DNA of 64,000 nucleotides from positions 1 through 64,000 of IMG/VR virus record IMGVR_UViG_3300020045_002314; one strand, 5' to 3'. Shown here piece after piece: positions 4,093-39,000 of this stretch. The stretch comes from a virus. Position numbers and translations under genes: made by a program. The notes under the pieces are model-generated. The model did not search any database and was not told where the DNA came from. It saw only the letters and a list, made by a program, of their open reading frames with translations. The first letter of the stretch is position 1, and each line of letters opens with the position of its first letter.

Positions 4093-4514
4093 CAACATTA
4101 ATAATAATTTCATTATATTTAATTTGGATAGCATTTTCCATATTAACAGCTAACTTTGAATCTAAGTATTGGGCATTACGTAATAAAACTTCTAATGTAT
4201 TTAAGTTTAAGAATGAACATAATATACTTACTTTAATACGAGTATGTTTAGCATTACCAATCAGTTTAATATTCTTTTATTACTTCTCATGGTATGCTAT
4301 TGCAGGAAGTATAAGTTTAATTACAATGTTTCCTTATTTTCATGATGGATTTTATTATTACTTTAGAAATAAAATAGATGGTAGTTATCCTAAAGGATTT
4401 AAAGATACATCTAATACATCAACTACTAAGAATGAAACTTTAGATTATAGAACAAGAACACTATTATTATTAATACACACACCTATTTTAATTATATTAA
4501 TGTTAACTAAATAA
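4089..4514 (+). CDS. Multi-pass membrane protein at the start of the lysis region
   Basis: 3-4 hydrophobic segments; ATGA overlap with upstream gene. Confidence 0.55.
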   Translation: MTTLIIISLYLIWIAFSILTANFESKYWALRNKTSNVFKFKNEHNILTLIRVCLALPISLIFFYYFSWYAIAGSISLITMFPYFHDGFYYYFRNKIDGSYPKGFKDTSNTSTTKNETLDYRTRTLLLLIHTPILIILMLTK

Positions 4515-4529
4515 TTATTTTTTTTATAA

Positions 4530-4865
4530 ATGAGCCTATTATTAAATATACTTTTAGACCCAATTAAATCAGCTATTGCTACAATTACAAGTAGTGCTAG
4601 TTTTACTATATTAGATATAGTTCAAACAACAATAACTAATGATACATTAAGTATTGTATCAACTGCAATGAAACATATAAGTTTTGCAACAGCAATGATT
4701 GCATTTATTTTTACAACAATTGCATTTGTTCAAAAACAAATAGATAGATATAATCGAAATAAACTAAGTAAAGTATTTAAAGATGATGATGATTCATATT
4801 TAGATAATAAATCAATTGGTAAAGCAAAACGTAAAATAACAAAACATAAACCTAAACAATTATGA
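4530..4865 (+). CDS. Putative holin
   Basis: Hydrophobic helix (ISFATAMIAFIFTTIAFV) followed by a charged, basic C-terminal tail; directly upstream of the endolysin with ATGA overlap. Confidence 0.55.
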   Translation: MSLLLNILLDPIKSAIATITSSASFTILDIVQTTITNDTLSIVSTAMKHISFATAMIAFIFTTIAFVQKQIDRYNRNKLSKVFKDDDDSYLDNKSIGKAKRKITKHKPKQL

Positions 4866-5377
4866 GTATAGATAAAACTAAAAATATAAGTAATCATATA
4901 ACTTATAAAGAAGCAGTCTATTCAAGAGATGCTTTAAGATATAATATTGATAATACACCTAATGAACAACAATTAGCTAATATGCAATATGTTGCTAATG
5001 GTATATTTGAACCTGCTAGAATACATTTTGGAATTAGAATGTATATATCTAGTTTTTTTAGAATATTAACATTAAATAAAAAAATAGGTAGTACTGCTAA
5101 ACATGGACATCCTGATGGAACTTGTATAGATGTTGATTGTGATGTTTACGAAGGTATTACCAATAAACAATTATTTTGTTATATTTATAAAAATTTAAAT
5201 TTTACAGAGCTTATATATGAACATCCTAAAGATGAAAAGGATTTAACTAAAGGTTGTGAATGGGTACACTTTCAATTAGTTAAAGGTAGAGAGAAAGAAA
5301 AAGAAGTTGGCATAGTAACATCTAAAGGTTGGAGATTATTAACTAAACAAGAAATTAATTTAATTTTAAATTCATAG
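4862..5377 (+). CDS. Endolysin, peptidase M15A family (Zn D-Ala-D-Ala carboxypeptidase fold)
   Basis: 'IDNTP', 'ISSFFR...LNKKIG...GHPDGTCID...WVH' match the M15A R...H..G.A.D...WVH pattern. Confidence 0.85.
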   Translation: MSIDKTKNISNHITYKEAVYSRDALRYNIDNTPNEQQLANMQYVANGIFEPARIHFGIRMYISSFFRILTLNKKIGSTAKHGHPDGTCIDVDCDVYEGITNKQLFCYIYKNLNFTELIYEHPKDEKDLTKGCEWVHFQLVKGREKEKEVGIVTSKGWRLLTKQEINLILNS

Positions 5378-20780: not shown

Positions 20781-23700
20781 ATGGGATTTTCAAATATTAA
20801 ATCTAATTCTGTAGAATTAAATAATAAAGTATCTAATTTAAAAACAAACCCATCTAATAACAAGATGGGTTTTGCATCTATATCTAATCCTTATGGTACA
20901 GGATATGCAGATATAAAAGATGTAGGTAATTATACAGCTAGTGTAAATTTTGGTGTAACTAAAGATTATTTAAATCAATTTGATTTTAATGTAGGAGTAG
21001 GTATAAACCCTAGTGATAGACAAGCATATAATCAAAGTACACTTGATGTAATTGGTAATTCAGCAGGTAGATTAGTTACTGGTATAGTAGGCAAAACAAT
21101 AGAAGGGTTTGGTTATTTATTTGGAGCAATAACAGGAGGATTATATTTAGCAGGTGAAGCAACTTTTGGTAATACAGAAGATGGTAAAAATAATACTTAT
21201 AATTGGATAGAGGAAAATCCTATAACACAATTAGGTTCATTTCTTGATAAAGGTTTAGAAGAAAGTATGCCTATATATGGTTATGAAAAAGATAAAAATA
21301 CTATTGGATTCAATGCTACATTTATATCTGAATTAATGGATGGTATAGAATTTCTAGGTTCAGCATTTGTACCAGGTGTTATAATAAGTAAAGCAGGTCT
21401 TGGTGTTAAAGCAGCTAGTAGTATTGCTAATATAGGAAGTAAAGCAAGTAAATCATCTAGAACTATATTTAAACAAGCATTATCAGAATTATCAAAAGGT
21501 ACAGCTGAATCAATAAAAGCTGCTGATGAACTTATTTTAAACAGTATGAAAGCAGGAGAATTATCTGAAAATGCTGTTAAAGTATTAAGCACAATTAGGA
21601 AAACTGCTGACCCTGCACTTATTCATGTATATAATGTAGCAAGTGAATCTGCATTTGAAGCATTTGATGCAGGAGAACAAAAATCAAATAGTTTAATAGG
21701 GAAAGTAAATCCTGAAACAGGAGAAATATATACACCTGAGGAATTAGCTGTTATAAAACGTGATGCAGCAGGTAAAGTATTTTTAAATAATGTTGCATTA
21801 TTATCAGTTACTAATTTAGCTGAAACAATGGCTATATCTAAAATATTTAAAAAAGGTACAAACGCTTTTTCTACTAAATATTTAAATAAACTAGATGATG
21901 TTAATAAACCAACTACAAATATAACAAATAGTCGTAAGTTAAGAAACTTTGTATGGGCAGGTTCAAAAACATCTACAGCAGAAGCATTTGAAGAATTAGC
22001 ACAATCTAGAATACAAGAAGGTACAGTAGATGATAAAGATTCTGCAGATATATATAAAGGATTATTTAATAGTATGGCTAATGTATCATTCACTAATGAA
22101 GATAAAAAAGCAATGTTCTTAGGTGCTATTATAGGTTTTATACCAGGAGGTATAGGTGGTGTAACTGATATTAATAATAAACAAGCAGAAGCTAATAGAA
22201 AATATACAGCTTCTATGATTACTAATTCATTATTTCAAGGTGTACAAGATGATTTATTTGTAAGAGATGAAAATGGTGAATATAAAACTGAAAATGGTAA
22301 TCTAGTATTAGATACAGCTAAATATAGAGATTTTATAAATGGTTTAGAAAACAATGAAACAGATACTACAACTAATGGTAGAAAACTTAGAACACAAGGT
22401 ATTATTGATTCTAATCCTGATTTATATTTTCAAGGTGTGCAATTAGATATTCATACAGCTTTATCAAATCTTTATTCTAATAATGGAGAAATAACAGAAG
22501 ATGATTTAAATAACGTAATTGATAAACAAGCTAAGAATATAACAGAAGTATATAATACAGCTACAACTATTAAAAATAGAAATTTAGCTAAACAAATAAC
22601 TATTGATGAAACTAAAAGTAAATTAAAAACATTAAATAAATCTTTATTAACTAACTTTAAAAAGAATAAAGAAACAGCAAATGCACTTACTTTACTAAAT
22701 GGTTTAACTGGTTTAGAGGCTTCTAAATATGCTAATTATATTCAATATAGTTTAAATCATTTGAATCTTAAATTAAATATGAATGATACAATAAATTCAT
22801 ATTTTGAAAAGCTATTACCTAGTGAATATAGAGAATCTGATGGATGGAAGAAACAAATGTATAACACAATACATTCTTTATTAAATCCTGACACAACCAC
22901 CACCGATGGCACTAGAATTGATAATTTCATATCAGATGATTTAAAAGCATCATTAAAATCAGAATTAGAAAGTTTAGAACTTACTATAGATAATAAAGAT
23001 AAAACTAATGGTAAATATACTATTGTTAATTCAGAAGATAGTGAAATAGCTAATTCTTTAATTAAAAATCAATATGATAAAATATTTAATCAAGATGCTG
23101 TTAATACTTTAAATAATAGTAAAAATAGTTTAAAATTATTTAATAATTATAAAAAAGCTGATACAGAATCTAGACAATCACAACATGATATTTCATTTAA
23201 TAATAATACAAATATATTTAATAAAGCATTTGATAAACTTACTACAGAACTAAAAGATACTAACCCTGAAACAATTAATATTTCTGAATTAACTAATCAA
23301 GCTATTGAATTTGATAAACAATATCAAACAGAACAATCTATTATAAAAGGTAAGAAAATTAAAAGTACACCTTTTATAGATATGTTAAATAATAAATTAA
23401 AAACATTAAAGAAAGAATTTCCTAAAACAAAAATTGTTAAAGTAAAAGAAGATGTAATAACAACAGATACAGAACAAACTGTAGAAGATACAACAACAGA
23501 TACACAACAAAATCCATCCATTCTTTCTACTGGGGTTGAGGACATGACTACTAAAGGTTTTTCCAATAATCTAAAAACAGATACTGCAACAGCTATATAT
23601 ACAGAAGAAATAACAGATAAAGAAGGTCATAAAGATACTATTACTTATAGTAATTTAAGAACATTATTATTTAAAGATTATACACCTCTTTCAGTTAATG

Positions 23701-26700
23701 TACAAATTAATGATTTAGTTAAAGATATATTTAAAGGAATATTAACCGAATTAAATTCTGAAATATATAGTAAATATAATTTATTAAGTAAAGAATCTAT
23801 AGATACAATATTTACACAATATTCTGAAATACTTAAAGATTTTAAAACTAAAGGATATGAAATAAAAACTAATATTATTATCAAAGGTTTAGTTAAAAAT
23901 ATAAAATCTAATGAATTAACTAGAGTTGCTGATACTATAGATATAGTATTAGTTAATAAACGTGGTAACTTTATTATTTATAATGTATCTTCTAAATATA
24001 ATAATAGTACAGATGTAACAGCTTATAAAAAGTTATTAAATAGTCAACGTATATTCTTATCACAAAATACAACAGCTTTAACTACATCAATGTTAGTTAG
24101 TGAAGTTAATTTAAATAAAGTTACTAATGAATTTTATGATAATGCTACAGTTGTTAAACCATTTCTAATTGAAGCTATTAATGAAATTTCAACAACAGAT
24201 GTTTTAATTAAAGCACCTATTGATTATAAAGAAATGAGAACAGCAGATGTTGTTGTATCTGATAAAGAAAGATTCTTTGGTACAGAATTAGAAACTAAAA
24301 TTAATAATGCTATAATTAAACATTTAGAGAAATCAATATCGTCTAAATTAAATGAAACACAACGTACTGAATTACAGAAATTATTAAATAATTTTATAGA
24401 TGTTTTTAGAAATATTCAATATACTACAGATGGTAAATCAGGATTAGAAGCTATCTTCTTAGATAAAACTATAACTTATGATGATGCTATAATTGAATAC
24501 TTTTTATATTTTTATAATAGATATAATAGAGAAGTACTAAAACGTAATGATGAAGGTTTAGTATCATTAATTAAAACTATGGTAAATGATATTAATAAAA
24601 TTAAAGGATTAGAAAAAGTAACAATTGATGAATTAGGTATTTTAAAAACACGTAATAATATTGTTAATATTACATTTGAATTTAATGTAGAATTCTTTGT
24701 TAATATATTTACTAAAAAGACTAAACGTGATGTTAGAGAAATGTCAGTAAGTAATACTATTATATATAATGCTATATCAGATTATTCTACATTAAAAGAA
24801 ATTATACTTGGTGATAAAGGTATTTCTAATAATAGACAATTAGGAGTTATATTAAATGATATATTAAATAATAAAATAAAGTCTAACGAAACTCTTATTA
24901 AATTAATAAATTCTACAAAAGAAAAAGATACTAACTTATTTAATAATTTAGTACATTTAGCGATACTTAATAAAATATCTAATTTCATTACAGATAAAGA
25001 TATTTTAAATGAATTACATATTATTAAAAATGAATTAAGTAGTTATTATAAAGCTGATATTACAGTTGAAATAAAAGATGATAAAGGTGTAGTTACTAAA
25101 GAATTAAATATTAGTCCTGATGTAAGAACAGCAATTACTGAATCATTCGATGATATATTAGGTAAGAATATAGAACGTGCTTTAGAATTATTATCAAATG
25201 AAGTAGTATTAGAAAATAATCCTGTAGAAGAAATTATAGTTGAAAATAATAGTAATGATAAAATAGCTGATATAGAAAGAAGAAGACATGAAGAGTTAGT
25301 AAAACCTTTAGAAAAAGTTAAAAATTCAAAAAACAAAGAAGAATTAATTCAATTTTCAGAAGAATGGATAGGAATTAATCCTTATGACGATGGAGCTGTT
25401 TCTATGGGAGTTAGAGCGAATTTAATGACTCCTAATAGTTTTCAAAAAGGTAAAGAACTGTTTATAGAAGAATTCAAAAATACAACAGAAATAAGAAATA
25501 AACAAATCAATGCTAAATATGATGCAGAATTAAAAGCATTAAAGCAACAAAATATACAATCTAATAATCAAAATACAAATACTGAAATAAATACAATAGA
25601 TACTAATATTATAGAACCTATTGATATTATAGAACCTATTGATATTCCTCAATTAACTACATTAAATACTGATAATAGTTTAAGAATATTTTTAAATGAT
25701 TTCTTTAAAACAACTAATAAATCTACAAATGAAAATGGAGATGTTGTTTTAAATGATGATAATATTAAATTAATATATAATGATTTACAGAATTTAAATT
25801 CTAAAACTGAATATTATATTAAAAAAACTAATGTAAATAATTATAATATTTATACAATATATGCTAATATTGAAGGTATTGAAATACAAATTGGTACATT
25901 ACAACGGCAAATAGATGAAACATTTAATGATACATTAGAAGATGTTATAAGTTCTAAATTAGGATATGGATGGGCTGAATATATATATCAAGATATTATA
26001 TATAATTTAAATGAAGAAACAAGAACTAAATTATATGAACTTTTAAATACTGATAGTTTAATTACACCATTTAAACAAAGTGTATTAAATAAAGAATTAT
26101 TAGATAATATATTATCATTATTTCCAAATATTATAACAACTACTGTTAATAATAAAGAATATACTTTAACTAAAATGCAATATATAGAGTTATTGCAAAA
26201 CAATACTCAATATGCTAATAATCCTTCTGAATTCTTAAAGCATTTATCTAATTCATTTAGTGGTAAAAATGCAGCTAAAGGTAAGAATGTAGATTTCTTA
26301 ACTAGAATATATAATGATGCAATAACATCACAAGAAATTATAAAATCATTAACAACACAAGATAAAGTTAATTTAAAATATGTAAAATCATCATCAGGAC
26401 AATATAATAAATCTAATAAACAAAGACCTTTATTTGAAGTATTTGATAAAACTAAAGGTAGATTAGCACATTATTCTAATGGTATATTACAATATAGAAA
26501 TAGTGATGGAACAACGGATGCTGTGTATAATCAACAATTAATTGATACAGTACAGAAATTTAAAAAACCTAATGGTTATTATTGGGTTACTACTGAAAAC
26601 TTTAATAAATCTGAATTTCCTATTAAATTAGGACAACGTAATATAACTACAGATGAAGCTTTAAATATATATAATGAATTATTAAAGAATAATTATAATC

Positions 26701-29700
26701 CTATATATAAATTATTAACTACTAATAAAATAAAAGATTTATTAAAACAAGTATCAGGTATAGATAAAGATATTAAATCGTATACTAGTCAAGATTTAGA
26801 TAAAACTAAATTTATGGAATTAGCAACTAATACATTTGTTGATTTTATATTTGGTAATGATAACGTAAAACATAATAGAAGTTCTTATGATAATTTAGGA
26901 AGTATATTTACAACTGATGTAAATTATGTATTAGATAATGAAGGTAATAAAATAGGAGTTACTACACCATTTGCTAGTACAACAAATATTTCATATGTTG
27001 AAAGAGCATTTACATTAATTTTAGAATTAGATAATACACAAGTTAATAATATAACTAAATTTGATAATACTAATCTTAATAATATTAAAAATGGTGTAGA
27101 AGAATTATTTAATTCTAATCCTGATTTAGCAAATATTGGTACACAAGAACAATACTCTGCTTATCTTGATACTATATTTCCTGATAGTAAAGTTAAAGAT
27201 GTTGTTTATCATGGAGCTAATGAACCTATTGAAGGAGATAAATTTGTTGTAAGACCTGGTGCAACAGGTAATGGTATATGGTTTTCAGGTTCTAAACGAT
27301 ATGCCACACAAGTATTAAATAGAGCACCTCAGCAAGAATCTTTACTTGGAAGAAAGCTAAGAGGTGAACCTACAATGTATAGTGCTATATTAAATATTAT
27401 AAACCCTAAACATTACAAAGATGCAAGTGGAGCAATATTAGCACAAAGCCCTGAAAGATTTCTAGAAGGAAAAATAGAAGAATATAGATTACATGGTAAT
27501 GAACAATATAATAAAGATATAGATGACGGTGCATTATTTCATCATCCTAATTCAAAGAAACCAGATACAAGTGATTCTGCTGAACAAGTTGTAGTATTTA
27601 ATCCTGACCAAATACATATTCTAGGTTCTAAACAAGATATTGAAGGATTTAAAGAATTTATAAATGATACTCCAATAATTACAGATATTTCAGTACAAGA
27701 ATTAGAAGATATTTTAGATAAAGAAAAGCAAAAATTGTTAAACCCTTTAATTGAAGAGAAACAAGAATTAGAAACATTATTAGAAGAATATGAAGAATTT
27801 AAAAATATTAATAATATTAAAATAAAAGAACTTATTTTTTCTAATGAAATAAATATAAATTCTATTATTACTGATAATGTTACAGAAATAGAAATAGAAG
27901 AAATTGCTAAAGAAGAATATATTAAAATTGAAGAAGTTAAACCATTAATTGAAAAAACTTTAAATACTGTATTAAATGATAAACGTAAACTTACTAATTT
28001 AAATTCAAAATTAAAAACTATAATCTCAAAAATATTAAAAACAATATTAACATTAGGTATTATATTTACATTACATACAAATTTTAAAAATGATATTAAA
28101 GAATACAAAATAAAAGAAGTTATTAAAACTGAAGTAAATATAGATACTATTGATAATAGCTATGATAAATTAACTAATGATGGTAAAATAGCGTATTTAC
28201 AAGAAAAACAAAATAATAAAGCATTTATAATAATTGATAAACCTACAGCAACTGCATACATATATGATAAAGATGGTAAACTAATAAAATATTTTCCTGT
28301 ATTATTAGGACAAAGTATTGGCGATGAAATAAGTAAATCAGATGCAAATTCGGATGTAGCCGAAAATGCTTTTACAACAAGTGGACGATATGTATTACAA
28401 GCTGCTCCTGAAAAAGTTTTAAGTGAATACAATAATAGACTTATGTATATAGATTCTGAAACAGGATTGGCTATACATGAAACTTATAAAGGTGAATTAA
28501 AAGAACGTACTAAAGCTTTAAATACTCCAACTATAGATGATAATCGTAAAACATGGGGATGTGTTAATGTAAGTTCTGAAAATTATGATATTTACTTAGC
28601 TCCTCATATACAACCAGGAAGTGTTATTATTATAACACGAGATTTTCAAAATAATATTGTTAAACCTATAAATATACAAGAATCTAAAAAAACTTCTAAA
28701 CAATCAAATGTTAGTTTTAATATTTTAGCATTATTAGGATTATCTTCATTATTACGTAAAAAACAAATATCAAATTTATCAGAACAAGATATTGAATCTT
28801 TAAAAAATAGAATTATAGATATTAATAATAAAATTAATGAAATTAAAACCTATTATGCTAATATACGAATTAATAATAATTTAATACAAGAATTAGAAGA
28901 TGATGATTTACCTGATGTATTTCGTAGAACACCTATTAATCAAAAAGAAATTAATATTAAATCATCTTATGAATCAGCTAAACAATATCTTGAAGAAAGA
29001 TTAGGTAATGTTAAATTTAATTGGTTAAATGAATATGTTGAAAGAATACCTGATGTAAAAACACATGGGTTTGTAAGTAATGCTGCTATAACCTTAATAG
29101 AAGGTGCAGCATATGGTACAGAATATCATGAAGCATTTGAATATGTATTTAAATATTTAATTGGAGATACATATAAAAGTGAAGTTATTTCCGAAGCATC
29201 TAAATATTATAAAACAGATGATGTTAATTTATTAAGAGAACAACTTGCAGAAGATTATAGATTATATGAAATATTAAGAAATGAAGAGAATAAACCTAAA
29301 ACAATTATAGATTTCTTTAAACATCTATTTAAAACACTTAGAGAATTTATATCACTTAGTCCATATACTAAAAGATTATTTGAAGATATTTATAATGGTA
29401 GATTTGTTAATAAAGAAATATTGACAAATAATGAAAATGTAGGAATTATAGCTAATAATTATTTAAATTCAATTAAAGGATTTACACCTAGTAATTTAGA
29501 TAGTAGTATAAATCTTACAGTAGCCTTGATGGTAGCTGCTCAAAATCATACTCAAATTATAAATGGTAAGCGTGTTAAATTATCAGATATATCTATCGAA
29601 ACAATTGTTACTAATAAAACTGATGATGGTTCGTTTAATAATAAATATAATATTAAACACGTAGTTATTAATATATTAGCTAAAAAGATTAATACAATGT

Positions 29701-32700
29701 TTAAAGATAAATCAGAAGTATATAAAATTACTTATGATAAATTTAATGAACAATATATTACATCTTTAGATACTATTGAAGCAATTACATTTACTAATTA
29801 TTTAAATAATAATACAGCTATCCTAAATGATTTAAAATATAATAATACAGATGTATCAATATATTCTTTAGCTAGAAAATATATGAATGATAAATTATTT
29901 ACATCATTTTATGATATTAATGATTTAGAAGAAATTAAAGATAATAGAGTAAATGCTTTAACTAAAATGTATGATGAAAATATATTTTCAGAATCACATT
30001 CTTATAACTTTAGTCCTATTGTTAAACAATATCTTGCATCTATTAAAGAAAAAACATTTGATATAAATGGTGGAGTTATAGATAAATTAGATGATTTTAC
30101 AGGACTACCTAAATTTATAGATTTTGAAATATTATATAATAAATTAATTGATATTTTAGCAGGTACTCATACTATAGATGAAAAACTTAATGTACTTAAA
30201 ACACATTCTAATTTTCATCCTACACTTAAAGAAATATATAATAAACTTACAGAATTACAAGATAATAAATTAGCCAATGAAGATTTATATAATGCTTTTA
30301 TGTCAGATTTTACAGGTACATACTTTGATGAATATGCTACTAATCTTACAGAAGAAGCTATATATTTAAATAAATTAAATCAGACACCTAAAGAAAATAT
30401 ATTAAATACTATTAAAGGAAATATATATTCTAATCAAGCTATTACTAAACTTACTATAGAAGATTTAAAAGGATATTTAACTATTATAAATTCTAGTACT
30501 AACAATTCTGAAATTATGGATATGTTAGTTAAAATATTTAATTATATATCTGTACCTATTACTAAAGATATTTTATATAGTTATATAAAAGATGAAACTA
30601 TTAATATAGATAATAAAACTACTTTATTAAAATCATTAGTCACAGAAGATAAATTAAATGGATTACTTAAAGTTGTTAATTCTAGTAATAATAATAATAA
30701 AGATATTAATATCTATTTAGAAAAATATTCTGAAATGATTAATAAATATTCTTTAGCTAAATTAGAATTATCATATACCGATATTAATGGTAATAAGAAA
30801 TATTCATTTAGAAAATATAATACAATTAATGAATTCTTTAGTAAATTAAAATCTAAACATGAACCAAATCAAAATAGTGTTAAAGAATATTTAATGGAAT
30901 TAATGTTAGATAATTCATATCATTATTCTAATTGGTTATTTAATAATAAAGGATTATTAGTTAAAGAAGGTAGTAGAGTTTCATTAAATACAAATCTTGT
31001 ATCTAATTTTGATATAGCTTTATATGGAGGTAGTAAAAATGCTACTGGACAAACAAGTGGTTATCTTAGAGAAACTCACTTTGAACAAGCTATCAATAAT
31101 TTATCATGGTATATGAATTCAAAATTTATATCACCTATGCCTTTTGGAGATAGTACAAATCATTATATGATTAAAGCTATTAACTTTAAATTATTACCTA
31201 ATGATATAACCATTAAAGATAAATCAATTATATTAAGTGATAAATCAGATATATTTATAGCTTTACGTAATGTTATATTACAAGAGAAAATAAGAATGAG
31301 TGAAGCTAAAATGTATATGTATAATAAGGATGGTAAGTTAAAACCAGATTATGAATTAGAACAATTAAACCTTATTGAAAATGTACATTATAAAGTTGAT
31401 AAATCAGGTAATAGAATTTATAGAGATGAAAAAGGAAATCCTGTAGGTAATATATTTAAATTTAATAATATAGAACTTACAGAAGATATTATTTATAATG
31501 GTGAAGTACAACTTAATTTAGTCAATGAACAAGTTATTAATGATGCTATTCAGAAGCTTATTAATAATGAAATGAATTCAAACTTAGGTGTATTGTATAA
31601 ATCATTAAACTCTGAATTCCCTACTATATCTGATACAGAATTTAATAATATTATTTTAGAACTATTAATGAATACATTAATTACTAATGTTGAAATTGGT
31701 AATTTCTTCAATGGTAATATCATGCAACAAAGTAAAGTCGCAGGTGTTAATAAAAGAGCTAAAAAAGGTATTCAATTTGGTTATAATTTATATAGTAATT
31801 CAACATTATCTACAATTGTAGTAAATGATAGAATGATTAATTTAAATACCAAAGGTGAATCTAATCGTAAAGAAACATATACTAATATTATAAATAGAGT
31901 ATCTACTATTGTAAATACTAATTATAATAATAAATATAAAGATATTATATTAGCTAATATTAAATCTCAATATAGTGCTGATATTAATTCTACAGATGGT
32001 TGGTCTATAATGACTATAGACGGATATGTAAAAATGTATTTAGAAGGTAAAGGTAGATTTAACGATTATAGATATTTATTTAATTATACTAATGGTAAAT
32101 ATACACTTAAATCTAATTTATCTAAACAAGATATAAAAGCTGTATTACAAGTTATTAAACCTATTATGGTTGATATGAAATCTAATATTATAAAAGATGA
32201 TAAAACTGAATATCGTGTAAATGTAGCACGTTATGAAAAACTATCAATCTTTATAATAGATGAATTATTTGTACAACCTGATAGTGAAATGCAAGAATTA
32301 CTTACAGCGATGAATGAAGGTATTGATGGTAAACCTATAGACAGAATTATATTTGCATCAGGTAAGAAAGATGGTAACGTAAAAAGATATTCTATCTTTG
32401 ATGAAAATGCTAAATTTAATAAAGATTTATTTAAAGCACAACCACATATTGTAGAAGATATACCAGTATCAAAATATAAAATACAATTAGAAGTACCTGA
32501 TGATATTAGAGATAAAGAAATAAAAGTAGGAGTACAATTATATAAACATATAGCTAGTAATATAAATAATATACATTCTTACAAACCTTCTTTTTTAATT
32601 TCTAAAAATGATATATCAGGTAAACAATTAAAACAAGAACATCAAAATACATTTAGTTCTATAATTAAGAAACAATCAACTAATTTATTAAAAACATTAT

Positions 32701-35700
32701 ATGATAATTTAAATCTTAGAGATAATGCAGACCATACATTGATTTATAATAATTTAGTAAGAGCATTACAAGATAGAAATATACCTAATGATATTATTAA
32801 ATCTATTAAATTAATTAATAAAAAGATTGTTACAGATTTAGGTGCTAATGGTATAAATGATAAAATAGTACCAGTTATTAATTCATTATTTAGAAATAAT
32901 ATAACAGATACTAAATTAGAAGGTGGACATACTGTTATTTTATCTGATGCTTTTTCTAATACAAGTTTAAAAGATGCAGAATATTCTGATGATTTAAAAT
33001 GTTATGCAGATGAAAATGGTAATTGGGTTGTAGAAGTATATATGCCTGTATGGAATTCTGAATTATTAGATGAATTAGGTAATCCAGTTGATATATCTAA
33101 ATTAGATAATAAATTATTAAATGGGATTGGTTATCGTGTACCTATTACATCACAACATAGTATGGTTACATATAAAGTAAAAGGATTTACACCTCCAACA
33201 TCAGGTAGTGTAATTACATTACCTTCTAATTTAATAACACAAACAGGATGGGATTTTGATGTTGATAGTATTTATTTATTAACTAAAACCATAAAGAAGA
33301 TAAAAGGTAGATATTATGCTAATAGTTATAAACGTATAACTTATCAAGATTATTTAAATAATTCTATACTTGAAAATTATAACTTATCTGAATTAACTGA
33401 AATATCAGCTAAATATATAAGTTTAGATTCTGAATTAAAAACATTAAATAAATCTTTAGATAATGCTGAATTAAAAACATCTACTAATTATAAAGAAAAT
33501 TATAATAAATTACAATATCTATTAGAACGATATAATAAAGAGATAGATGTAGACAAAAAACAGAAGATGGAGAAAAGTCTATATAATTTAAGAGTTATGT
33601 TATTAATGGATGCTGCATTAGAAATAAATACAAATGTAGATGAAGAATTTAAATCTAAGTTTAAAACACTTAAAGATGAAAAAGATAAATATTTTAAAGA
33701 GATAACTAAATTATTAATTAATAAAGGTTTAATTTATAAAGAAAGTAAGTTTGAAGAATTAGTTAAATCAGATATAACTACTGTACTTACTATAGAACAA
33801 TTACAAAATAGAATGATTGATATATGGACAGATATGTTAAGTCAAAATAATGGTTTTATAGCAATGGTTACATCTTCTACAATTAAACCTAATGAATTAA
33901 TTAGAGATGAAATAAATACTATATTTGAAAGTAATAAAGTAAGTAAAAGCCCTATATTAGCTAGTAATAATTTTAATACAAGAATTAATACAACATCAGG
34001 AAAAGAGATGTTAGGTATTGCAGCTAATAGTGGTTCGATTATAACTATATTAGAAGAAGGTAGTGCAGTATTAAACTATGATTTACAAATACCTTATTAT
34101 ATTGAATATAATGATGTAAATTTAAATAATGTACAAAATGATTATGGTAATTATGAAGTTATTACATTTAATAATCGTAAGTATATTAAAACTAAATTTA
34201 AAAATATAGGTTGGAACGATAGTGGAGATACTAGAATGTTAACTAAATTATATGAAGATAATAACGATGTTGAATATACATATACTATTTCAGAATCTAT
34301 AGGTTGGGATACAGACCATTCAGTAGATATTAATTCATCGTTAATGCCTAGAAATATAAATCGTAATACAATAGGTACTAATATTGCAGCTAAAATGTTG
34401 AAATTACCACCTAGATATATTACATTATTATTTAATCAAAAAATCATAGATGATATGTTAAATTTAATAAATAAACATAATCCTAATGATGGTAGATTAA
34501 ATGCAAAAACAGCTATCGAAGATATTTATTTTACAATGTTATTTAAGAAATTAGCATATACTGATAATAAATTTAATAATAATGTTGAGTATGTAGAAAT
34601 GAATAGAGATTATATTAAACATAATACTGTATTATCGAATAAGTTATATAATGATAATAAAAGTGTATATGATATATTCAATATTGTAGATGAACCTTTT
34701 GATGAAGTTGATTTAAAAAACTTTATAATTGAAGGATTAGATATTCAAAAACAGCCAGTAGATAAACAAGTAGAGTTTATTAAGAAGCAACTTAATGTAT
34801 TTAAAATGTATAAATATTTGAATAGTACATCAGAAGCAATGTTAGGTGAAACATCTAAAATGAATGCTGATAAAATAGATTCAGGTATAACATTTGATGC
34901 TGTTACAGATTTAATTAAAGCTGTAGATAGTAAAGATAAAGTTGTTATATATACAAATACAGGTAAACCATTCTTAAAAGAATTATATAGTAATCCTGAT
35001 TTATATAAATTAATGTATACATATTATAAAGAAGGAGTTGAGAATTTATATAATATAGCTAAAGATTTATTTGGTTATTTAACACCTACTTTAAAAACTG
35101 AAATAGATGGATTCCATGAATTATATCCTTATGCTAGAAGAGAAGTTTATAAATTTATAAGAAGTATATATTATAGTATATATAAAGATTTTAATTTATT
35201 TAAATTAGCTAATGATGAAGTTAATCAAAATTTATATAACTTAAAAAATGATAATAGTTTAGTATCAAGAATAGTTAAATTAAAAAGTAAACCTGAAAAT
35301 CAACAACCTATTTGGTTACAATATATAAATGTTGTACCTTTTAGAAATAATCAAAACTACGCATATTTAACATTTACTAATTATAATAATAAAATGTTAA
35401 ATTATATACATGATAGTTTTAATAATTATATAGATGAAAACATAGAAGATAATTATACACTTGTTGAAGATTTAGTTAAATATGCTTATTTCAAAGAAGG
35501 ATTTACATATAAATATAGTAATATTTCTAATTTATTAACAGATTTTACATTTACTATTTTAGGTTTTAATGATTATAAAATAAATGCTTTTAATAAAATT
35601 AAAACAGATACTTTAAATTTAGATACAAATAATATATTATTATCATTCTTATTAACTAATAGATATGATAATCAGTTTGTACCTAAAGTAAAAGTAACTA

Positions 35701-36032
35701 AAAAGAATAAAACATGGGATGTATTAAATGGTAATAAGATAAAGAATATTATTACTATTGATGCTACAAGTTATGCAAGATTATATAGTAATATTCAAAA
35801 TGCTCCTATTGTTAGGCGAACAATTAAATATAATAATAAGTTTATAGATTTATTTTATTATAAAACATTTGATGAAGTTAATAAAATACATGAATATAAA
35901 TTATTAGATACTAAAAAACTATTACCTTATACTAATATATCTTTAAATAATATTAATAATATAGATAATGTAGCAGGTGTTTCTTTTTATGATAACGATG
36001 ATATGTCAGTTGAATTATATTGTAACAATTAA
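20781..36032 (+). CDS. Giant virion-packaged DNA-dependent RNA polymerase polyprotein (crAss-type double-psi-barrel RNAP) with accessory domains
   Basis: 5083 aa; catalytic 'GYRVP.TSQHSM...QTGWDFDVD' (DFDVD at 33252-33266) and 'INSTDG' (~31990); Gly-rich hydrophobic N-terminal segments; synteny with crAss RNAP loci. Confidence 0.88.
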   Translation: MGFSNIKSNSVELNNKVSNLKTNPSNNKMGFASISNPYGTGYADIKDVGNYTASVNFGVTKDYLNQFDFNVGVGINPSDRQAYNQSTLDVIGNSAGRLVTGIVGKTIEGFGYLFGAITGGLYLAGEATFGNTEDGKNNTYNWIEENPITQLGSFLDKGLEESMPIYGYEKDKNTIGFNATFISELMDGIEFLGSAFVPGVIISKAGLGVKAASSIANIGSKASKSSRTIFKQALSELSKGTAESIKAADELILNSMKAGELSENAVKVLSTIRKTADPALIHVYNVASESAFEAFDAGEQKSNSLIGKVNPETGEIYTPEELAVIKRDAAGKVFLNNVALLSVTNLAETMAISKIFKKGTNAFSTKYLNKLDDVNKPTTNITNSRKLRNFVWAGSKTSTAEAFEELAQSRIQEGTVDDKDSADIYKGLFNSMANVSFTNEDKKAMFLGAIIGFIPGGIGGVTDINNKQAEANRKYTASMITNSLFQGVQDDLFVRDENGEYKTENGNLVLDTAKYRDFINGLENNETDTTTNGRKLRTQGIIDSNPDLYFQGVQLDIHTALSNLYSNNGEITEDDLNNVIDKQAKNITEVYNTATTIKNRNLAKQITIDETKSKLKTLNKSLLTNFKKNKETANALTLLNGLTGLEASKYANYIQYSLNHLNLKLNMNDTINSYFEKLLPSEYRESDGWKKQMYNTIHSLLNPDTTTTDGTRIDNFISDDLKASLKSELESLELTIDNKDKTNGKYTIVNSEDSEIANSLIKNQYDKIFNQDAVNTLNNSKNSLKLFNNYKKADTESRQSQHDISFNNNTNIFNKAFDKLTTELKDTNPETINISELTNQAIEFDKQYQTEQSIIKGKKIKSTPFIDMLNNKLKTLKKEFPKTKIVKVKEDVITTDTEQTVEDTTTDTQQNPSILSTGVEDMTTKGFSNNLKTDTATAIYTEEITDKEGHKDTITYSNLRTLLFKDYTPLSVNVQINDLVKDIFKGILTELNSEIYSKYNLLSKESIDTIFTQYSEILKDFKTKGYEIKTNIIIKGLVKNIKSNELTRVADTIDIVLVNKRGNFIIYNVSSKYNNSTDVTAYKKLLNSQRIFLSQNTTALTTSMLVSEVNLNKVTNEFYDNATVVKPFLIEAINEISTTDVLIKAPIDYKEMRTADVVVSDKERFFGTELETKINNAIIKHLEKSISSKLNETQRTELQKLLNNFIDVFRNIQYTTDGKSGLEAIFLDKTITYDDAIIEYFLYFYNRYNREVLKRNDEGLVSLIKTMVNDINKIKGLEKVTIDELGILKTRNNIVNITFEFNVEFFVNIFTKKTKRDVREMSVSNTIIYNAISDYSTLKEIILGDKGISNNRQLGVILNDILNNKIKSNETLIKLINSTKEKDTNLFNNLVHLAILNKISNFITDKDILNELHIIKNELSSYYKADITVEIKDDKGVVTKELNISPDVRTAITESFDDILGKNIERALELLSNEVVLENNPVEEIIVENNSNDKIADIERRRHEELVKPLEKVKNSKNKEELIQFSEEWIGINPYDDGAVSMGVRANLMTPNSFQKGKELFIEEFKNTTEIRNKQINAKYDAELKALKQQNIQSNNQNTNTEINTIDTNIIEPIDIIEPIDIPQLTTLNTDNSLRIFLNDFFKTTNKSTNENGDVVLNDDNIKLIYNDLQNLNSKTEYYIKKTNVNNYNIYTIYANIEGIEIQIGTLQRQIDETFNDTLEDVISSKLGYGWAEYIYQDIIYNLNEETRTKLYELLNTDSLITPFKQSVLNKELLDNILSLFPNIITTTVNNKEYTLTKMQYIELLQNNTQYANNPSEFLKHLSNSFSGKNAAKGKNVDFLTRIYNDAITSQEIIKSLTTQDKVNLKYVKSSSGQYNKSNKQRPLFEVFDKTKGRLAHYSNGILQYRNSDGTTDAVYNQQLIDTVQKFKKPNGYYWVTTENFNKSEFPIKLGQRNITTDEALNIYNELLKNNYNPIYKLLTTNKIKDLLKQVSGIDKDIKSYTSQDLDKTKFMELATNTFVDFIFGNDNVKHNRSSYDNLGSIFTTDVNYVLDNEGNKIGVTTPFASTTNISYVERAFTLILELDNTQVNNITKFDNTNLNNIKNGVEELFNSNPDLANIGTQEQYSAYLDTIFPDSKVKDVVYHGANEPIEGDKFVVRPGATGNGIWFSGSKRYATQVLNRAPQQESLLGRKLRGEPTMYSAILNIINPKHYKDASGAILAQSPERFLEGKIEEYRLHGNEQYNKDIDDGALFHHPNSKKPDTSDSAEQVVVFNPDQIHILGSKQDIEGFKEFINDTPIITDISVQELEDILDKEKQKLLNPLIEEKQELETLLEEYEEFKNINNIKIKELIFSNEININSIITDNVTEIEIEEIAKEEYIKIEEVKPLIEKTLNTVLNDKRKLTNLNSKLKTIISKILKTILTLGIIFTLHTNFKNDIKEYKIKEVIKTEVNIDTIDNSYDKLTNDGKIAYLQEKQNNKAFIIIDKPTATAYIYDKDGKLIKYFPVLLGQSIGDEISKSDANSDVAENAFTTSGRYVLQAAPEKVLSEYNNRLMYIDSETGLAIHETYKGELKERTKALNTPTIDDNRKTWGCVNVSSENYDIYLAPHIQPGSVIIITRDFQNNIVKPINIQESKKTSKQSNVSFNILALLGLSSLLRKKQISNLSEQDIESLKNRIIDINNKINEIKTYYANIRINNNLIQELEDDDLPDVFRRTPINQKEINIKSSYESAKQYLEERLGNVKFNWLNEYVERIPDVKTHGFVSNAAITLIEGAAYGTEYHEAFEYVFKYLIGDTYKSEVISEASKYYKTDDVNLLREQLAEDYRLYEILRNEENKPKTIIDFFKHLFKTLREFISLSPYTKRLFEDIYNGRFVNKEILTNNENVGIIANNYLNSIKGFTPSNLDSSINLTVALMVAAQNHTQIINGKRVKLSDISIETIVTNKTDDGSFNNKYNIKHVVINILAKKINTMFKDKSEVYKITYDKFNEQYITSLDTIEAITFTNYLNNNTAILNDLKYNNTDVSIYSLARKYMNDKLFTSFYDINDLEEIKDNRVNALTKMYDENIFSESHSYNFSPIVKQYLASIKEKTFDINGGVIDKLDDFTGLPKFIDFEILYNKLIDILAGTHTIDEKLNVLKTHSNFHPTLKEIYNKLTELQDNKLANEDLYNAFMSDFTGTYFDEYATNLTEEAIYLNKLNQTPKENILNTIKGNIYSNQAITKLTIEDLKGYLTIINSSTNNSEIMDMLVKIFNYISVPITKDILYSYIKDETINIDNKTTLLKSLVTEDKLNGLLKVVNSSNNNNKDINIYLEKYSEMINKYSLAKLELSYTDINGNKKYSFRKYNTINEFFSKLKSKHEPNQNSVKEYLMELMLDNSYHYSNWLFNNKGLLVKEGSRVSLNTNLVSNFDIALYGGSKNATGQTSGYLRETHFEQAINNLSWYMNSKFISPMPFGDSTNHYMIKAINFKLLPNDITIKDKSIILSDKSDIFIALRNVILQEKIRMSEAKMYMYNKDGKLKPDYELEQLNLIENVHYKVDKSGNRIYRDEKGNPVGNIFKFNNIELTEDIIYNGEVQLNLVNEQVINDAIQKLINNEMNSNLGVLYKSLNSEFPTISDTEFNNIILELLMNTLITNVEIGNFFNGNIMQQSKVAGVNKRAKKGIQFGYNLYSNSTLSTIVVNDRMINLNTKGESNRKETYTNIINRVSTIVNTNYNNKYKDIILANIKSQYSADINSTDGWSIMTIDGYVKMYLEGKGRFNDYRYLFNYTNGKYTLKSNLSKQDIKAVLQVIKPIMVDMKSNIIKDDKTEYRVNVARYEKLSIFIIDELFVQPDSEMQELLTAMNEGIDGKPIDRIIFASGKKDGNVKRYSIFDENAKFNKDLFKAQPHIVEDIPVSKYKIQLEVPDDIRDKEIKVGVQLYKHIASNINNIHSYKPSFLISKNDISGKQLKQEHQNTFSSIIKKQSTNLLKTLYDNLNLRDNADHTLIYNNLVRALQDRNIPNDIIKSIKLINKKIVTDLGANGINDKIVPVINSLFRNNITDTKLEGGHTVILSDAFSNTSLKDAEYSDDLKCYADENGNWVVEVYMPVWNSELLDELGNPVDISKLDNKLLNGIGYRVPITSQHSMVTYKVKGFTPPTSGSVITLPSNLITQTGWDFDVDSIYLLTKTIKKIKGRYYANSYKRITYQDYLNNSILENYNLSELTEISAKYISLDSELKTLNKSLDNAELKTSTNYKENYNKLQYLLERYNKEIDVDKKQKMEKSLYNLRVMLLMDAALEINTNVDEEFKSKFKTLKDEKDKYFKEITKLLINKGLIYKESKFEELVKSDITTVLTIEQLQNRMIDIWTDMLSQNNGFIAMVTSSTIKPNELIRDEINTIFESNKVSKSPILASNNFNTRINTTSGKEMLGIAANSGSIITILEEGSAVLNYDLQIPYYIEYNDVNLNNVQNDYGNYEVITFNNRKYIKTKFKNIGWNDSGDTRMLTKLYEDNNDVEYTYTISESIGWDTDHSVDINSSLMPRNINRNTIGTNIAAKMLKLPPRYITLLFNQKIIDDMLNLINKHNPNDGRLNAKTAIEDIYFTMLFKKLAYTDNKFNNNVEYVEMNRDYIKHNTVLSNKLYNDNKSVYDIFNIVDEPFDEVDLKNFIIEGLDIQKQPVDKQVEFIKKQLNVFKMYKYLNSTSEAMLGETSKMNADKIDSGITFDAVTDLIKAVDSKDKVVIYTNTGKPFLKELYSNPDLYKLMYTYYKEGVENLYNIAKDLFGYLTPTLKTEIDGFHELYPYARREVYKFIRSIYYSIYKDFNLFKLANDEVNQNLYNLKNDNSLVSRIVKLKSKPENQQPIWLQYINVVPFRNNQNYAYLTFTNYNNKMLNYIHDSFNNYIDENIEDNYTLVEDLVKYAYFKEGFTYKYSNISNLLTDFTFTILGFNDYKINAFNKIKTDTLNLDTNNILLSFLLTNRYDNQFVPKVKVTKKNKTWDVLNGNKIKNIITIDATSYARLYSNIQNAPIVRRTIKYNNKFIDLFYYKTFDEVNKIHEYKLLDTKKLLPYTNISLNNINNIDNVAGVSFYDNDDMSVELYCNN
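25606..25646 (+). repeat. 18-bp tandem repeat (ATATTATAGAACCTATTG x2.3) encoding IIEPID twice
   Basis: Read directly; lies in a linker after the inserted cassette. Confidence 0.9.
27085..27665 (+). other. ADP-ribosyltransferase-like (ART-PolyVal type) domain within the RNAP polyprotein
   Basis: 'VVYHGA..GIWFS..YA..MYSAILNIINP..DG..EQVVVFNPDQIHILGS' follows the ART-PolyVal pattern (YHG / G.YFT / E..VF.P.QI). Confidence 0.7.
28221..28640 (+). other. L,D-transpeptidase (YkuD)-like domain within the RNAP polyprotein
   Basis: 'IIIDK..AYIYDKDGKLIKYFPVLLG..TTSGRY..LAIHET..DNRKTWGCVNV..PGSVIII': His and G-C catalytic pattern of YkuD. Confidence 0.75.
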
Positions 36033-36042
36033 TTAAGTAATT

Positions 36043-39000
36043 ATGATTTGTCCTAATTTAAAAAACAAAGAAGTTAAAATAGAATTTATGAAGATTTCAA
36101 ATCTTATAGGTAGTAACAATGCTTATAAGGTTTGGAATTTAAATAATGGTAATCCATTACATTTAAATTCAGATGGTAGCCCTAGTCAAACTTATAAAGA
36201 TTTAATGAATAAGTTAATAAATGATGAAGAACTTGTTATTAAAAAGATAAGTGAAAATTTATTAAATAATGAAATAATTATTGAACCTAATGAACTTCAA
36301 AAACAATCATTTATAGCATTTAATGAAATAGCTACTGAACAATATACAAATAAAGTTAAAGATTTATTATTATATAATTTTAGTAAAATAGGTTTAAATA
36401 ACATTAACGTAATAGCGGATACTACATTAAAAGATAATGCCAGTGTAGAGAAAATAGATGGTGTTATAACAATTAAATTCAATCCTAATAAAATTAAAAA
36501 CGATAGTATATTTCATGAATTTGGACATATCTATATAGACTTAATAGAAGATAAAGTATTTATACAAAATATTATAGATAAACTTAAAGGTACTGATTTA
36601 TGGTATAAAATAGCTTTATTATATCCTGAACTTACAGAAGAACAATTAGGTAAAGAAGTATTAACTACTGCTATAGGAATGAAAGCAAAAGAAATATATA
36701 ATACAAGTGAAGATGTTTCATGGTGGAAATTTATAGTTAATTTAATTAAATCTAAGTTACAAGAATTATTTAATACTAAAGAACATCAAATTGAACAATT
36801 AGCTAATGATTTAATAACAGGTGATTTTAGTAAACAAATAAATCATAATTATGATATATTATTACAACATCAAAAAGATGCTATTGATATTAATTCATTA
36901 AAAGATTGGACAGAAGCAATACAATCACAATCTAATAAACTACAATCGTTAATAAAACAATATAAAGATTTAGGTATAAGACCTGAGGAAGTTAATGATA
37001 GTATTAAAGTAAAAGCTAAATATGATAGATATTTAAATCATTTAAATAATACTAATTTAACTAATATGTTTGAAGCTTGTGTATCAATGTTAGAATTTGA
37101 TAAAACAACTTTAATAACAGTAGAACAAGATATTGAAAAACTTAAAAAAGTATTTAATAAAAACTTTACACCTGAAACAATAACTTTAGATGAATTTAAT
37201 TATTTAAATCAACGTATAAACTTTGCACGTAATTTTGTTAATTCAATAATTGATATATCTAATATAACAAATCCATTATTAGCTACAGATTTAGATTTTA
37301 TTAATGGAGAATTATCTCAAGAAGAAGTTACATATATAAATAATATTAATAATTCATATTTAAAATTAATGCAATCTGTTGATATTAAAAGTTTTGATAG
37401 ACGTGTTAAAGAAATTAATATGGTTTTAGATAAGTTTAGACAAATATCTATGACTTGGGTTTTACAATTAAGTAGTAATCCTAGATATGAAAAGTTTGAA
37501 CAATCAGATTGGATGGATTTATATAAAACTGGATTAGTAGATGAAACAACAATGCAATTATATTTCGATTCTATATTTGATAGTAGTAATTCATTCTTAG
37601 CTAATTTTGCTAAATATGAAATGTTTAATTATTCCTTTATGAATGATGAAATAAGAAGATTAAAAATAGAATTTAATAAACAATTAAAAACAGCAGGTGG
37701 AAATGATGTTTATGATAAGATTATAGAAAATGGTAGATTAATACAAAAATATAAATTTAGTGAATTTTGGACAGACTTAAATAAAGCTTTAACAGAAGGT
37801 AATAAAAATGATGCATGGAATATTAAATTAAAGTATGCAAATATTGCTACACCTGATGAATTTAATAAAGCTATTGTTAATATGCGTTCTAAAGTTAAAG
37901 ATGATTTAGATTTAAAACAAATGTCTGTAGAAGAAGCTAGTAATTATATTACAGAAGAAGAATGGAATCTATGGATTAAAGATAACTTTCATCAAAAATC
38001 AGATGGTACTTATATACCTAGAATAGGAGGATTATATGCTTTACCTAAAGATACTTATATAAATCCTAAATGGGAAACGTTACAATCTAATCCTATAACT
38101 AAAGAATTTCATGGATATATGGTAGAATTAATGCGTAAACTTACAAGTCATGCTTCTAATTCACCACAGTATAAAGGTTATATGGCTGCTATATCTAAAA
38201 CTAAATTAAATAAAGTAAAAGTAGAAAAGTTAGATGAAGAGTTTTCAGATATGGATGGTAATAAATTATATACTATCCCATTCCCATTTTTAGGTTATTT
38301 AAGTAATGAAACTAAAATACCAATTCGTCAACAAGTTACTGATGAAACAGATGAAATGTATGAAAAAAGTATAGTTGACTATGCTAATCTTTTATTTAAA
38401 GATAAAGTTGGATTTGTACCTTTTACAACATTAAAAGAAATATTAAAAGAAAATGATAATATTGAAAAACGTAATAAAGAATTTCATAAAGAACACGTTA
38501 ATACAGATTTAAAATATACAATGGATTTATTTATTGAATCAGCTATTACTAATAAATATAAAGCTAGAATGTATGATAGTGTTATGTTAGCATTATATTC
38601 ATTTGAAAATGATACATTAATAAATACAAATAATAAAGGTAAAAATGTTATTGATAAGTTAAAGTATGCAATAGGTTTAACAGATTCAGGAGAAATTAAT
38701 AGACAACCAAACACCTATCTTACTAAAGGGGTCTTAACCAAATCAGCTAAACATCTTCGTAAAAAGATTGAAATGACTTTCTTTGATATGTTTACTAAAC
38801 CTAATGATTATAATGATGTTCTACAAAAGTTTAAAAATTATACATCTTTAATTGGTATAGGTTTTAATGGTTTAGCAGCATTTAAAAATGTTACATATGG
38901 TGGTTATATGTCATTAATAGAAAGTAGTTGTAAACAATTTATATCTTTTAAATCATTAGATAAAGGTGCTAGATTATATCATTCAGGATTAGTAGATTAT

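Follow-up and report, generated by a model that had tools for sequence, protein, structure and literature searches.

No phages are more abundant in the human gut than the Crassvirales, which are also common in the sea, and to our knowledge the way in which they take over their hosts in the first minutes is largely unknown. Here, we describe a gene in a 64,000-nucleotide stretch of viral DNA (hereafter the window; positions 1 to 64,000 of IMG/VR record IMGVR_UViG_3300020045_002314), in which a putative crAss-like virion RNA polymerase (RNAP) and several enzyme-like modules are encoded by one open reading frame (ORF) of 5083 amino acids (aa). It is the longest among the 19 ORFs of at least 300 aa in the window, and its translation is stop-free, as claimed by an earlier note on this DNA made from the letters alone, which had singled out the range 23800-29450 (aa ~1007-2890) as a payload-carrying region. 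The same note had listed a PD-(D/E)xK-like candidate, a short cassette, an ADP-ribosyltransferase (ART), a YkuD unit and a domain with the motif HEAFE, and all five were located in that order and at those places. The source record of 90,192 bases carries direct terminal repeats and is rated complete; the phage itself is uncultured. The features of the gene and the gene that follows it are listed here (P numbers denote proteins, and L numbers viral loci, from our searches).

20781..36032, + strand: fused virion protein and RNA polymerase, a single ORF of 5083 aa (ORF listing and translation)
20919..22313, + strand: N-terminal domain like gp67, a virion structural protein of phage phi14:2, aa 47-511 (tblastn, blastp, hydropathy)
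23838..24065, + strand: possible degenerate PD-(D/E)xK-like domain, a lead only, aa 1020-1095
25266..25541, + strand: five-helix cassette, aa 1496-1587, bounded by ADIERRRHEEL and INAKYDAELKAL
27078..27671, + strand: ADP-ribosyltransferase module of the ART-PolyVal type, aa 2100-2297 (H2144, W2167, D2276)
27630..27655, + strand: 26-base junction at the C-terminal end of the ART, coding for KQDIEGFKE, with 1 mismatch to the consensus of related loci
27678..28010, + strand: E/K/I-rich helical linker, aa 2300-2410, belonging to the YkuD unit and conserved in P0005
28017..28073, + strand: hydrophobic, transmembrane-like helix, aa 2413-2431, Kyte-Doolittle (KD) hydropathy 1.75, conserved in P0005
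28221..28634, + strand: YkuD domain (L,D-transpeptidase fold), aa 2481-2618, with H2566 and C2594
28713..28751, + strand: short second hydrophobic stretch, aa 2645-2657, conserved in P0005
28884..29420, + strand: zincin-like domain, aa 2702-2880, with H2783, E2784, E2787 (His in most relatives) and E2820
31539..33611, + strand: conserved RNA polymerase core, aa 3587-4277
33252-33266, + strand: DFDVD motif, aa 4158-4162
36043..40320, + strand: next gene, 1425 aa, RNAP-associated subunit (matches crAss 'RNAP subunit' genes)

Both ends of the protein have counterparts in crAss-like phages. With aa 3001-5083 as query, tblastn matched 76 phage records, every one of them crAss-like, at 22-27% identity and with a best E of 4e-17; the matched genes are annotated as putative RNA polymerase. 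A local iterative search aligned aa 821-1490 of phi14:2 gp66 to aa 3587-4277. The DFDVD motif lies inside this gp66-homologous region, 925 aa before the C-terminus, as expected of a crAss-like virion RNA polymerase (DFDxD) and as the earlier note had proposed for its C-terminal core. At the other end, aa 47-511 are 27% identical to aa 37-448 of phi14:2 gp67 (tblastn E 1e-5; also found by blastp), and a Gly-rich hydrophobic N-terminus, likewise described in that note, is apparent from hydropathy as stretches at aa 191-209 and 444-464. In phi14:2, the gene order is g067 (1797 aa), g066 (the RNAP, DFDID at 1361; with 2180 aa less than half the size of the 5083-aa protein, as had been stated) and g065 (1421 aa, HEIMH), all three annotated from tandem mass spectrometry (MS/MS) of virions; the presence of gp65, gp66 and gp67 in virions is also reported in bioRxiv 10.1101/2020.03.07.982082. 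The 1425-aa gene downstream, with two Cellulophaga phage records among its matches, is inferred from the shared gene order to be the counterpart of phi14:2 gp65. Hence, with two ends and the next gene matched, the giant joins a gp67-like protein to a gp66-like polymerase, and a gp65-like gene follows it. Between the gp67-like and gp66-like parts lie ~2200 residues of fast-evolving sequence. The polymerase cores of relatives are ~22-35% identical, and no close relative of the 5083-aa protein was found in our searches.

Polyvalent proteins were defined by Iyer et al. 2017 (PMC5512222) in phages and conjugative elements. Because ART, YkuD, zincin and RNAP share one ORF among virion-type neighbours (the gp65-like subunit and a Gly-zipper protein), the 5083-aa protein belongs to this category in the sense of that work, and the results support its description as a polyvalent-type virion polymerase with several enzyme-like modules. 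A region search identified 16 other proteins of 2800-5766 aa (hereafter giants) that have modules in common with it, and these, together with viral loci from further searches, form the basis for the comparisons below.

The HExxE zincin placed by the earlier note at ~aa 2783 corresponds to the HEAFE motif at aa 2783-2787, which lies inside a zincin-like family: a local iterative search with aa 2690-2900 found 19 copies in 16 giants. H2783, E2784 and E2820 are invariant in 68/68 zincin domains. At position 2787, 51 copies have His and 17 have Glu, which makes HEAFE a recurrent variant of the HExxH...E signature. In an AlphaFold model from a 16-row alignment, a helix and three strands precede the HExxE helix, with a predicted local distance difference test (pLDDT) score of 62 overall and 75-91 in the core. 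The nearest structures in a VIA comparison were lethal-factor-like domains, PPEP-1/2/3, IrrE and ArdC (Z 7.6-4.8), the matches at Z 7.6-6.3 spanning 122-137 residues, and a PDB profile search aligned the motif and an EExxAE helix with PPEP-1/Zmp1 (E 0.016-0.16). No Pfam family matched the window copy. In 53 ORFs, the zincin lies 626-1021 aa (median 728) upstream of the polymerase core, the gap in the window being 707 aa; it had no match in 8 ORFs with enough upstream sequence, and 34 ORFs were too short to tell. This fixed spacing indicates that the zincin is a fixed N-terminal part of the polymerase module and not payload, so that one component of the swappable set proposed earlier, which would be exchanged independently, falls away. 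A second zincin copy occurs next to a C-terminal ART in P0003, P0011 and P0008.

The ART shows the opposite behaviour with respect to position. The claim of an ART-like domain at ~aa 2100-2295 holds in that a 300-aa tile matched Pfam ART-PolyVal (PF18760; E 1.5e-5, 26.2 bits, profile positions 8-130 of 140) and in that it belongs to a large homologous family, although the match stays below the Pfam cutoff. The module is common to 14/16 giants in the region search (32-77% identity), and P0006, P0008 and P0011 have precomputed PF18760 matches. Scans of long proteins miss it: for the 2000-aa piece that holds it, YkuD was the sole family listed at E <= 1, and neither P0002 nor P0004 yielded it at 0.01, so absence in such scans is not evidence. 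A two-sequence alignment from DNA references yielded 115 viral loci, of which 80 were kept and used for mapping of profiles. The crAss polymerase core was found in 66 of these 80 loci (no core in 14). The ART was in the next ORF after the core in 37 loci. Within one ORF, it followed the core in 19 and preceded it (the arrangement in the window) in five; it was inside the core region in three loci and in the previous ORF in two. Taking both placements after the core together (56/66 core-bearing loci), and with the window arrangement in only 5/66, the notion of a single payload bay does not fit the relatives. The clearest sign that the module is mobile is a subtype, 64-77% identical among its copies, that is located before the zincin in P0001 and P0002, at the C-terminus in P0003 and at the N-terminus in P0004, on polymerase cores that are <=35% identical between P0001/P0002, P0003 and P0004. 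A tree of 63 ART copies compared with position gave 8 changes versus 8.6 in shuffles, with 5/52 branches well supported.

Within the module, the ends are near-invariant (IFPDSKVKDIVYHG; QIHILGSKQDIEGFKEF) and the middle is hypervariable. The column of H2144 holds His in 56 and Arg in 7 of 63 copies, and D2276 falls in the best-conserved acidic column (E 46, D 3 of 63; strand assignment by alignment only). The seven copies in which the His of YHG is replaced by Arg (loci L009-L088) are reminiscent of the R-S-E active site of other ARTs.

The YkuD domain itself is well above threshold (Pfam PF03734, 36.7 bits versus a cutoff of 23.4, profile positions 2-146 of 146). Of the hydrophobic-YkuD-hydrophobic unit described in the earlier note, the helix at aa 2413-2431 and the YkuD domain are confirmed, but the second stretch has only 13 residues and lies under the 1.5 hydropathy threshold, with basic residues after it. 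The linkers between modules, described as T/D/N-rich, are partly N/T-rich at aa 1590-1640, but the one between ART and YkuD is E/K/I-rich. The unit (aa 2304-2697) is 39% identical over 408 aa to P0005, a giant, including both hydrophobic stretches, and H2566 and C2594 are conserved there. As a stand-alone query it matched one 459-aa protein (P0027, 40% identity), and its profile had one match among 160 further viral loci (L144, just upstream of the zincin). Hence, the unit was found elsewhere in only three places: P0005, L144 and P0027. L144, a minus-strand ORF of at least 3932 aa, carries a bracket (see below), YkuD unit, zincin and core in the same order as the window, and has its ART inserted inside the zincin, as is also the case in P0006.

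When aa 901-2100 were compared exhaustively with 1.84 billion representatives by HMMER, only nine proteins were returned, all matching at aa ~1426-1616 with 35-77% identity. The earlier note's cassette (DIERRR..INAKYDAEL) is thus a real, discrete module, as all nine matches land on it; its model (10-row alignment) consists of five helices at pLDDT 90.7. No Pfam domain was present in 7/9 cassette homologues scanned, and comparisons of the model and sequence indicated no known family: Foldseek gave no neighbour at E <= 0.001 (best 1.1), the top VIA neighbours among 48,161 chains were generic helices at Z 7.7, the ESM Atlas feature search reached 0.87 with no family, and a PDB profile search gave E 0.19 or worse. 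A profile search for the cassette identified five viral loci, each time in a giant or in the ORF preceding the polymerase ORF. In L129, L003 and several stand-alone proteins, the gp67-like protein carries it close to its C-terminus, and in L005 the cassette adjoins the zincin. This arrangement suggests that aa 1590-2700 of the window protein (an unassigned part, the ART and the YkuD unit) may have been inserted at an old gp67/gp66 junction.

The end motifs of the cassette are more widespread than the cassette. A DNA pattern coding for NAKYDAEL was present in at least 120 viral stretches, and 80 loci were analysed (the bracket loci). These contained 84 NAKYDAEL occurrences, with [AD][DE][IV][EQ]x[RK][RK] <=330 aa upstream in 63 and a relaxed form in 13 more; of 5000 random stretches of 300 aa drawn from these ORFs, 122 contained the strict upstream form. 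Between the end motifs ADIERRRQEEL ... INAKYDAELAAL, 57 interiors of at least 25 aa fell into 37 mutually unrelated BLAST clusters (at least 37 kinds, as 80 of at least 120 stretches were used), none of them like the interior of the window cassette. The bracket motifs are far better conserved than their surroundings, and a crAss core and/or zincin was found in 48/80 bracket loci, although the loci are short. Interiors in these loci (L089-L168; e.g., L105, L123, L148, L160, L121, L131, L139 and L125) range from 25 to >270 aa, some with HGG...FSFSATP (ART-like by eye) and others with a HEFIH zincin motif. Tandem bracket copies have N-brackets with 31-35 identical bases. This DNA identity was set aside as a signal, as codon bias in AT-rich genes could account for much of it.

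A second conserved junction lies at the C-terminal end of the ART, where third codon positions are conserved well above the flanks across ~50 bases. The 26-base consensus has a single occurrence in the window, with one mismatch (27630-27655; 0 expected by chance), and at <=3 mismatches it is found in 52/80 ART loci versus 2/80 bracket loci. In L153, LGSKQDIEGFKTF, which elsewhere ends the ART module, follows a HEYAH zincin-like segment and is directly followed by DKINAKYDAELA; the two junction types are therefore combinable.

For the degenerate PD-(D/E)xK-like domain of the earlier note, a lead exists in ESM Atlas features of aa 985-1150 (clusters PDDEXK_1, PDDEXK_3 and DUF2800 at 0.90-0.92, with 107-138 shared features against a typical 170 for true members), but there is no Pfam match and no homologue among the 1.84 billion representatives, and a (D/E)xK motif is not evident by eye.

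Taken across relatives, three modules are accessory, namely the ART by its position, the YkuD unit by its rarity and the cassette by the unrelated interiors found between its end motifs, and the idea of a swappable payload is to this extent supported, but not for the constant zincin. We put at roughly 0.7 the probability that the gene encodes a crAss-type polyvalent virion protein, in which a gp67-like N-terminus is fused to a gp66-like putative two-barrel virion RNAP (from ~aa 2700) and which would serve payload delivery. The protein would be packaged in the capsid, like its phi14:2 and crAss001 counterparts, and would leave it, partly unfolded, before the DNA does. The hydrophobic helix, YkuD domain and second hydrophobic stretch may form a membrane hairpin with YkuD in the periplasm, where it could cut or remodel peptidoglycan or lipoprotein links at the entry site, and the ART (upstream) and the zincin and polymerase (downstream) would remain cytoplasmic. 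There, the ART would ADP-ribosylate host targets, by analogy with T4 Alt, the zincin in its HExxE variant might process the polyprotein or be structural, and the polymerase would transcribe early genes. Injection and effector activity of the 5083-aa protein are proposals.

Several observations weigh against this account. The ART score of 26.2 bits is below the Pfam gathering cutoff of 31.2; W2167 takes the place of the Tyr that is canonical in strand 2 (Y 31, F 11, W 6 over 63 copies), and N2274 stands where 37/63 copies have Glu. In P0007, P0009, L026 and L029, the ART lies inside the polymerase body, which is easier to reconcile with a domain that stays attached for good than with an effector that is set free, and the ART tree is too weak to count moves, its well-supported branches forcing only two. 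In the zincin, the second His is replaced by Glu (E2787), so zinc binding may be atypical; the model has an overall pLDDT of only 62, no VIA Z reaches 8, Foldseek gave a best E of 0.26 and nothing <= 0.001, and no Pfam peptidase model was found, with no family in more than 1/16 members at E <= 1. The second hydrophobic stretch does not reach the length of a standard transmembrane helix, and the case for the hairpin topology is weaker for it. Finally, the catalytic YkuD motif is usually H...(S/T)HGC, and here Trp stands in place of the His before Gly-Cys.

T7 gp16 and other ejection proteins are internal virion proteins with a wall-degrading domain and membrane segments, and the modules described here might likewise be parts of an ejection machine instead of takeover effectors. 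The gp67-like N-terminus, hydrophobic helices and YkuD would then build and clear a trans-envelope conduit (compare T7 gp14-16, with gp16 a transglycosylase), and the ART and zincin would be structural or inactive relics attached to the polymerase. The Gly-rich hydrophobic stretches at the N-terminus and the transmembrane-like helix before YkuD would suit such a machine, as would the non-canonical W2167 and N2274 of the ART and E2787 of the zincin, the location of the ART within the polymerase body in some relatives, and the proposal that crAss001 cargo proteins form a channel (PMC10172136). However, 63 copies of the ART agree closely at their ends, also at the NAD-site His, and HExxE recurs (17/68) with all other ligands invariant, which argues for selection on function; we regard this alternative as improbable.

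Alternatively, the giant could be a precursor that is cut at conserved junctions by its own zincin or a head protease before or after ejection, the cassette ends and ART-end junction being cleavage signals, in which case the carrier would never act as one chain. Its parts are separate genes in phi14:2, the junction motifs are conserved far above their surroundings and the zincin is constantly present; moreover, cleavage of fused forms is expected in bioRxiv 10.1101/2020.03.07.982082, and autoprocessing by zincin peptidases has been proposed (PMC5512222). Set against this, the virion RNAP (vRNAP) of N4 is packaged unprocessed (PMC5512222), and both end motifs of the cassette are predicted to lie in long helices of one confidently folded unit, for which a stalk would be the better fit. 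We consider a precursor unlikely on balance, if a serious minority option. That the long ORF is an assembly or annotation artefact joining separate genes is hardly credible: the separate genes of phi14:2 are all we found in its favour, whereas 15.2 kb are stop-free although the genome, at 22% GC, is rich in stops, GC at third codon positions (GC3) is even along the ORF at about 6%, the record is complete with terminal repeats, and the modules are shared by the 16 giants.

The delivery-carrier reading, as preferred here, places the protein beside N4-like virion RNAPs, in which a fused zincin peptidase (MPTase) is always present and an H-Y-D ART, lysozyme or PBECR in some cases, and for which autoprocessing and Alt-like host modification were proposed (PMC5512222). 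Both are huge single chains, virion-associated or predicted to be so, that combine a polymerase with a zincin-like domain, an ART (here a putative one) of the H-Y-D (ART-PolyVal) type and a known or putative cell-wall enzyme, and in both the zincin is the constant partner of the polymerase. In contrast, the polymerase here is of the unrelated, putatively two-barrel crAss type and that of N4 is T7-like, the zincin family lies outside Pfam models and has HExxE in the 5083-aa protein, and the wall enzyme is a YkuD between hydrophobic segments (the word YkuD is absent from the main text of PMC5512222, where 'transpeptidase' was outside the search).

Among crAss-like phages, phi14:2 shares the order of gp67-like, RNAP and gp65-like genes and a homologous DFDxD core, but there gp66 (2180 aa) and gp67 (1797 aa) are separate genes. 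The bracket motif was not found in the 75 kb of phi14:2 examined, nor HExx[HE] in its gp66 and gp67. Fused polyprotein forms in some phages, and a zincin-like domain in the gp65 type, are described in bioRxiv 10.1101/2020.03.07.982082. The protein would also belong with gp47/gp49/gp50 of crAss001 to a known class of virion RNAP proteins; crAss001 packages three RNAP-associated cargo proteins that must partly unfold to exit (PMC10172136). The crAss transcription block has been described as several large multidomain proteins (PMC7886860), in the text of which, as drawn on here, 'ADP-ribosyl' and 'peptidase' do not occur. Like T4 Alt, which is proposed to act at infection (PMC5512222), the ART would be head-packaged, but Alt is a separate small protein of the R-S-E clade, and the ART here, a putative member of the H-Y-D type, forms part of the polymerase chain. 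The likeness to T7 gp16 (also treated in PMC10172136) is that of an internal virion protein with a peptidoglycan-acting domain and membrane segments; gp16 has a lytic transglycosylase fold, whereas the fold here is YkuD, in the same chain as the RNA polymerase. With one query against 50,697 GenBank phage records, ART, YkuD and cassette had no match (34 records matched, of which the best 30 were all in the zincin region), and a literature search, with figures and supplements outside its scope, found no report of ART, YkuD or bracket motifs in crAss polymerases.

The earlier note had regarded the carrier as its best candidate for a novel system. This stands for a crAss-type variant with YkuD, but the principle itself has been published for N4-like RNAPs (PMC5512222) and polyvalent proteins. 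The most novel element of the locus is the system of conserved brackets and junction. Tentatively, and with more doubt than confidence, we propose that crAss-like phages could possess a dedicated system for domain exchange, with these in-frame junctions as its docking sites: the ADIERRRQEEL ... INAKYDAELAAL helical hairpin (as at aa 1496-1587) and the 26-base KQDIEGFKE junction. The hairpin would be a universal stalk through which a giant ejected protein could accept any small domain and stay undisturbed, and the short conserved junction DNA might let phages trade these heads, so that the injected effectors differ from lineage to lineage. If the carrier reading is true, N4-type and crAss-type virion RNAPs independently became carriers of a zincin, an H-Y-D ART and a wall enzyme, and such convergent carriers would suggest that the delivery of proteins at infection has a general solution. 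The ART, YkuD and bracketed cassette are expressible candidates for early host-takeover and envelope-crossing functions, and the conserved junctions offer a handle for cataloguing the domain repertoire in metagenomes.

Further searches of the 5083-aa protein gave few matches. None of its three thirds matched PHROGs, neither aa 1001-3000 nor aa 3001-5083 had a phmmer match among PDB sequences, viral contigs scanned with single sequences (core; ART and YkuD) contained no relative, a word-based search with aa 900-2100 among giants gave 0 relatives in 1268 candidates, and local tile searches at 1e-4 found none for aa 1-1400, 1600-2000, 2900-3600 and 4300-5083. No paralogous segment was found elsewhere in the window, and no Rfam match within 20000-41000.

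The window is AT-rich (GC 21-28%), and across the 5083 codons of the ORF at 20781-36032 GC3 is only 6.2%, an extreme AT bias. Recent transfer of modules, as it might be signalled by GC, was considered and rejected, given that GC3 in ART (6.9%), YkuD (6.5%) and zincin (4.2%) equals that of the gene; the value for the cassette (11.5%) is slightly above it. An 18-bp tandem duplication (2.3 copies; 25606..25646, + strand) lies in the low-complexity linker 3' of the cassette. Opposite the ART end and the E/K/I-rich linker runs an antisense ORF of 188 aa (27542-28108, - strand), which is unusual at 22% GC and is probably a by-product of the codon make-up of the linker.

Upstream of the gene, a 617-aa protein (16400-18253, + strand) has an N-terminal glycine zipper (PF13488, E 8e-6) and PHROG matches to tail-associated lysin and tape-measure families; judging by these matches, it is probably another ejected cargo protein. 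Among the relatives, P0005 has a precomputed GNAT match, and P0004, with its ART at the N-terminus, carries a PIF1/RecD-like helicase (AAA_30, E 2e-17) at aa 2843-3344, after the crAss-type polymerase core.

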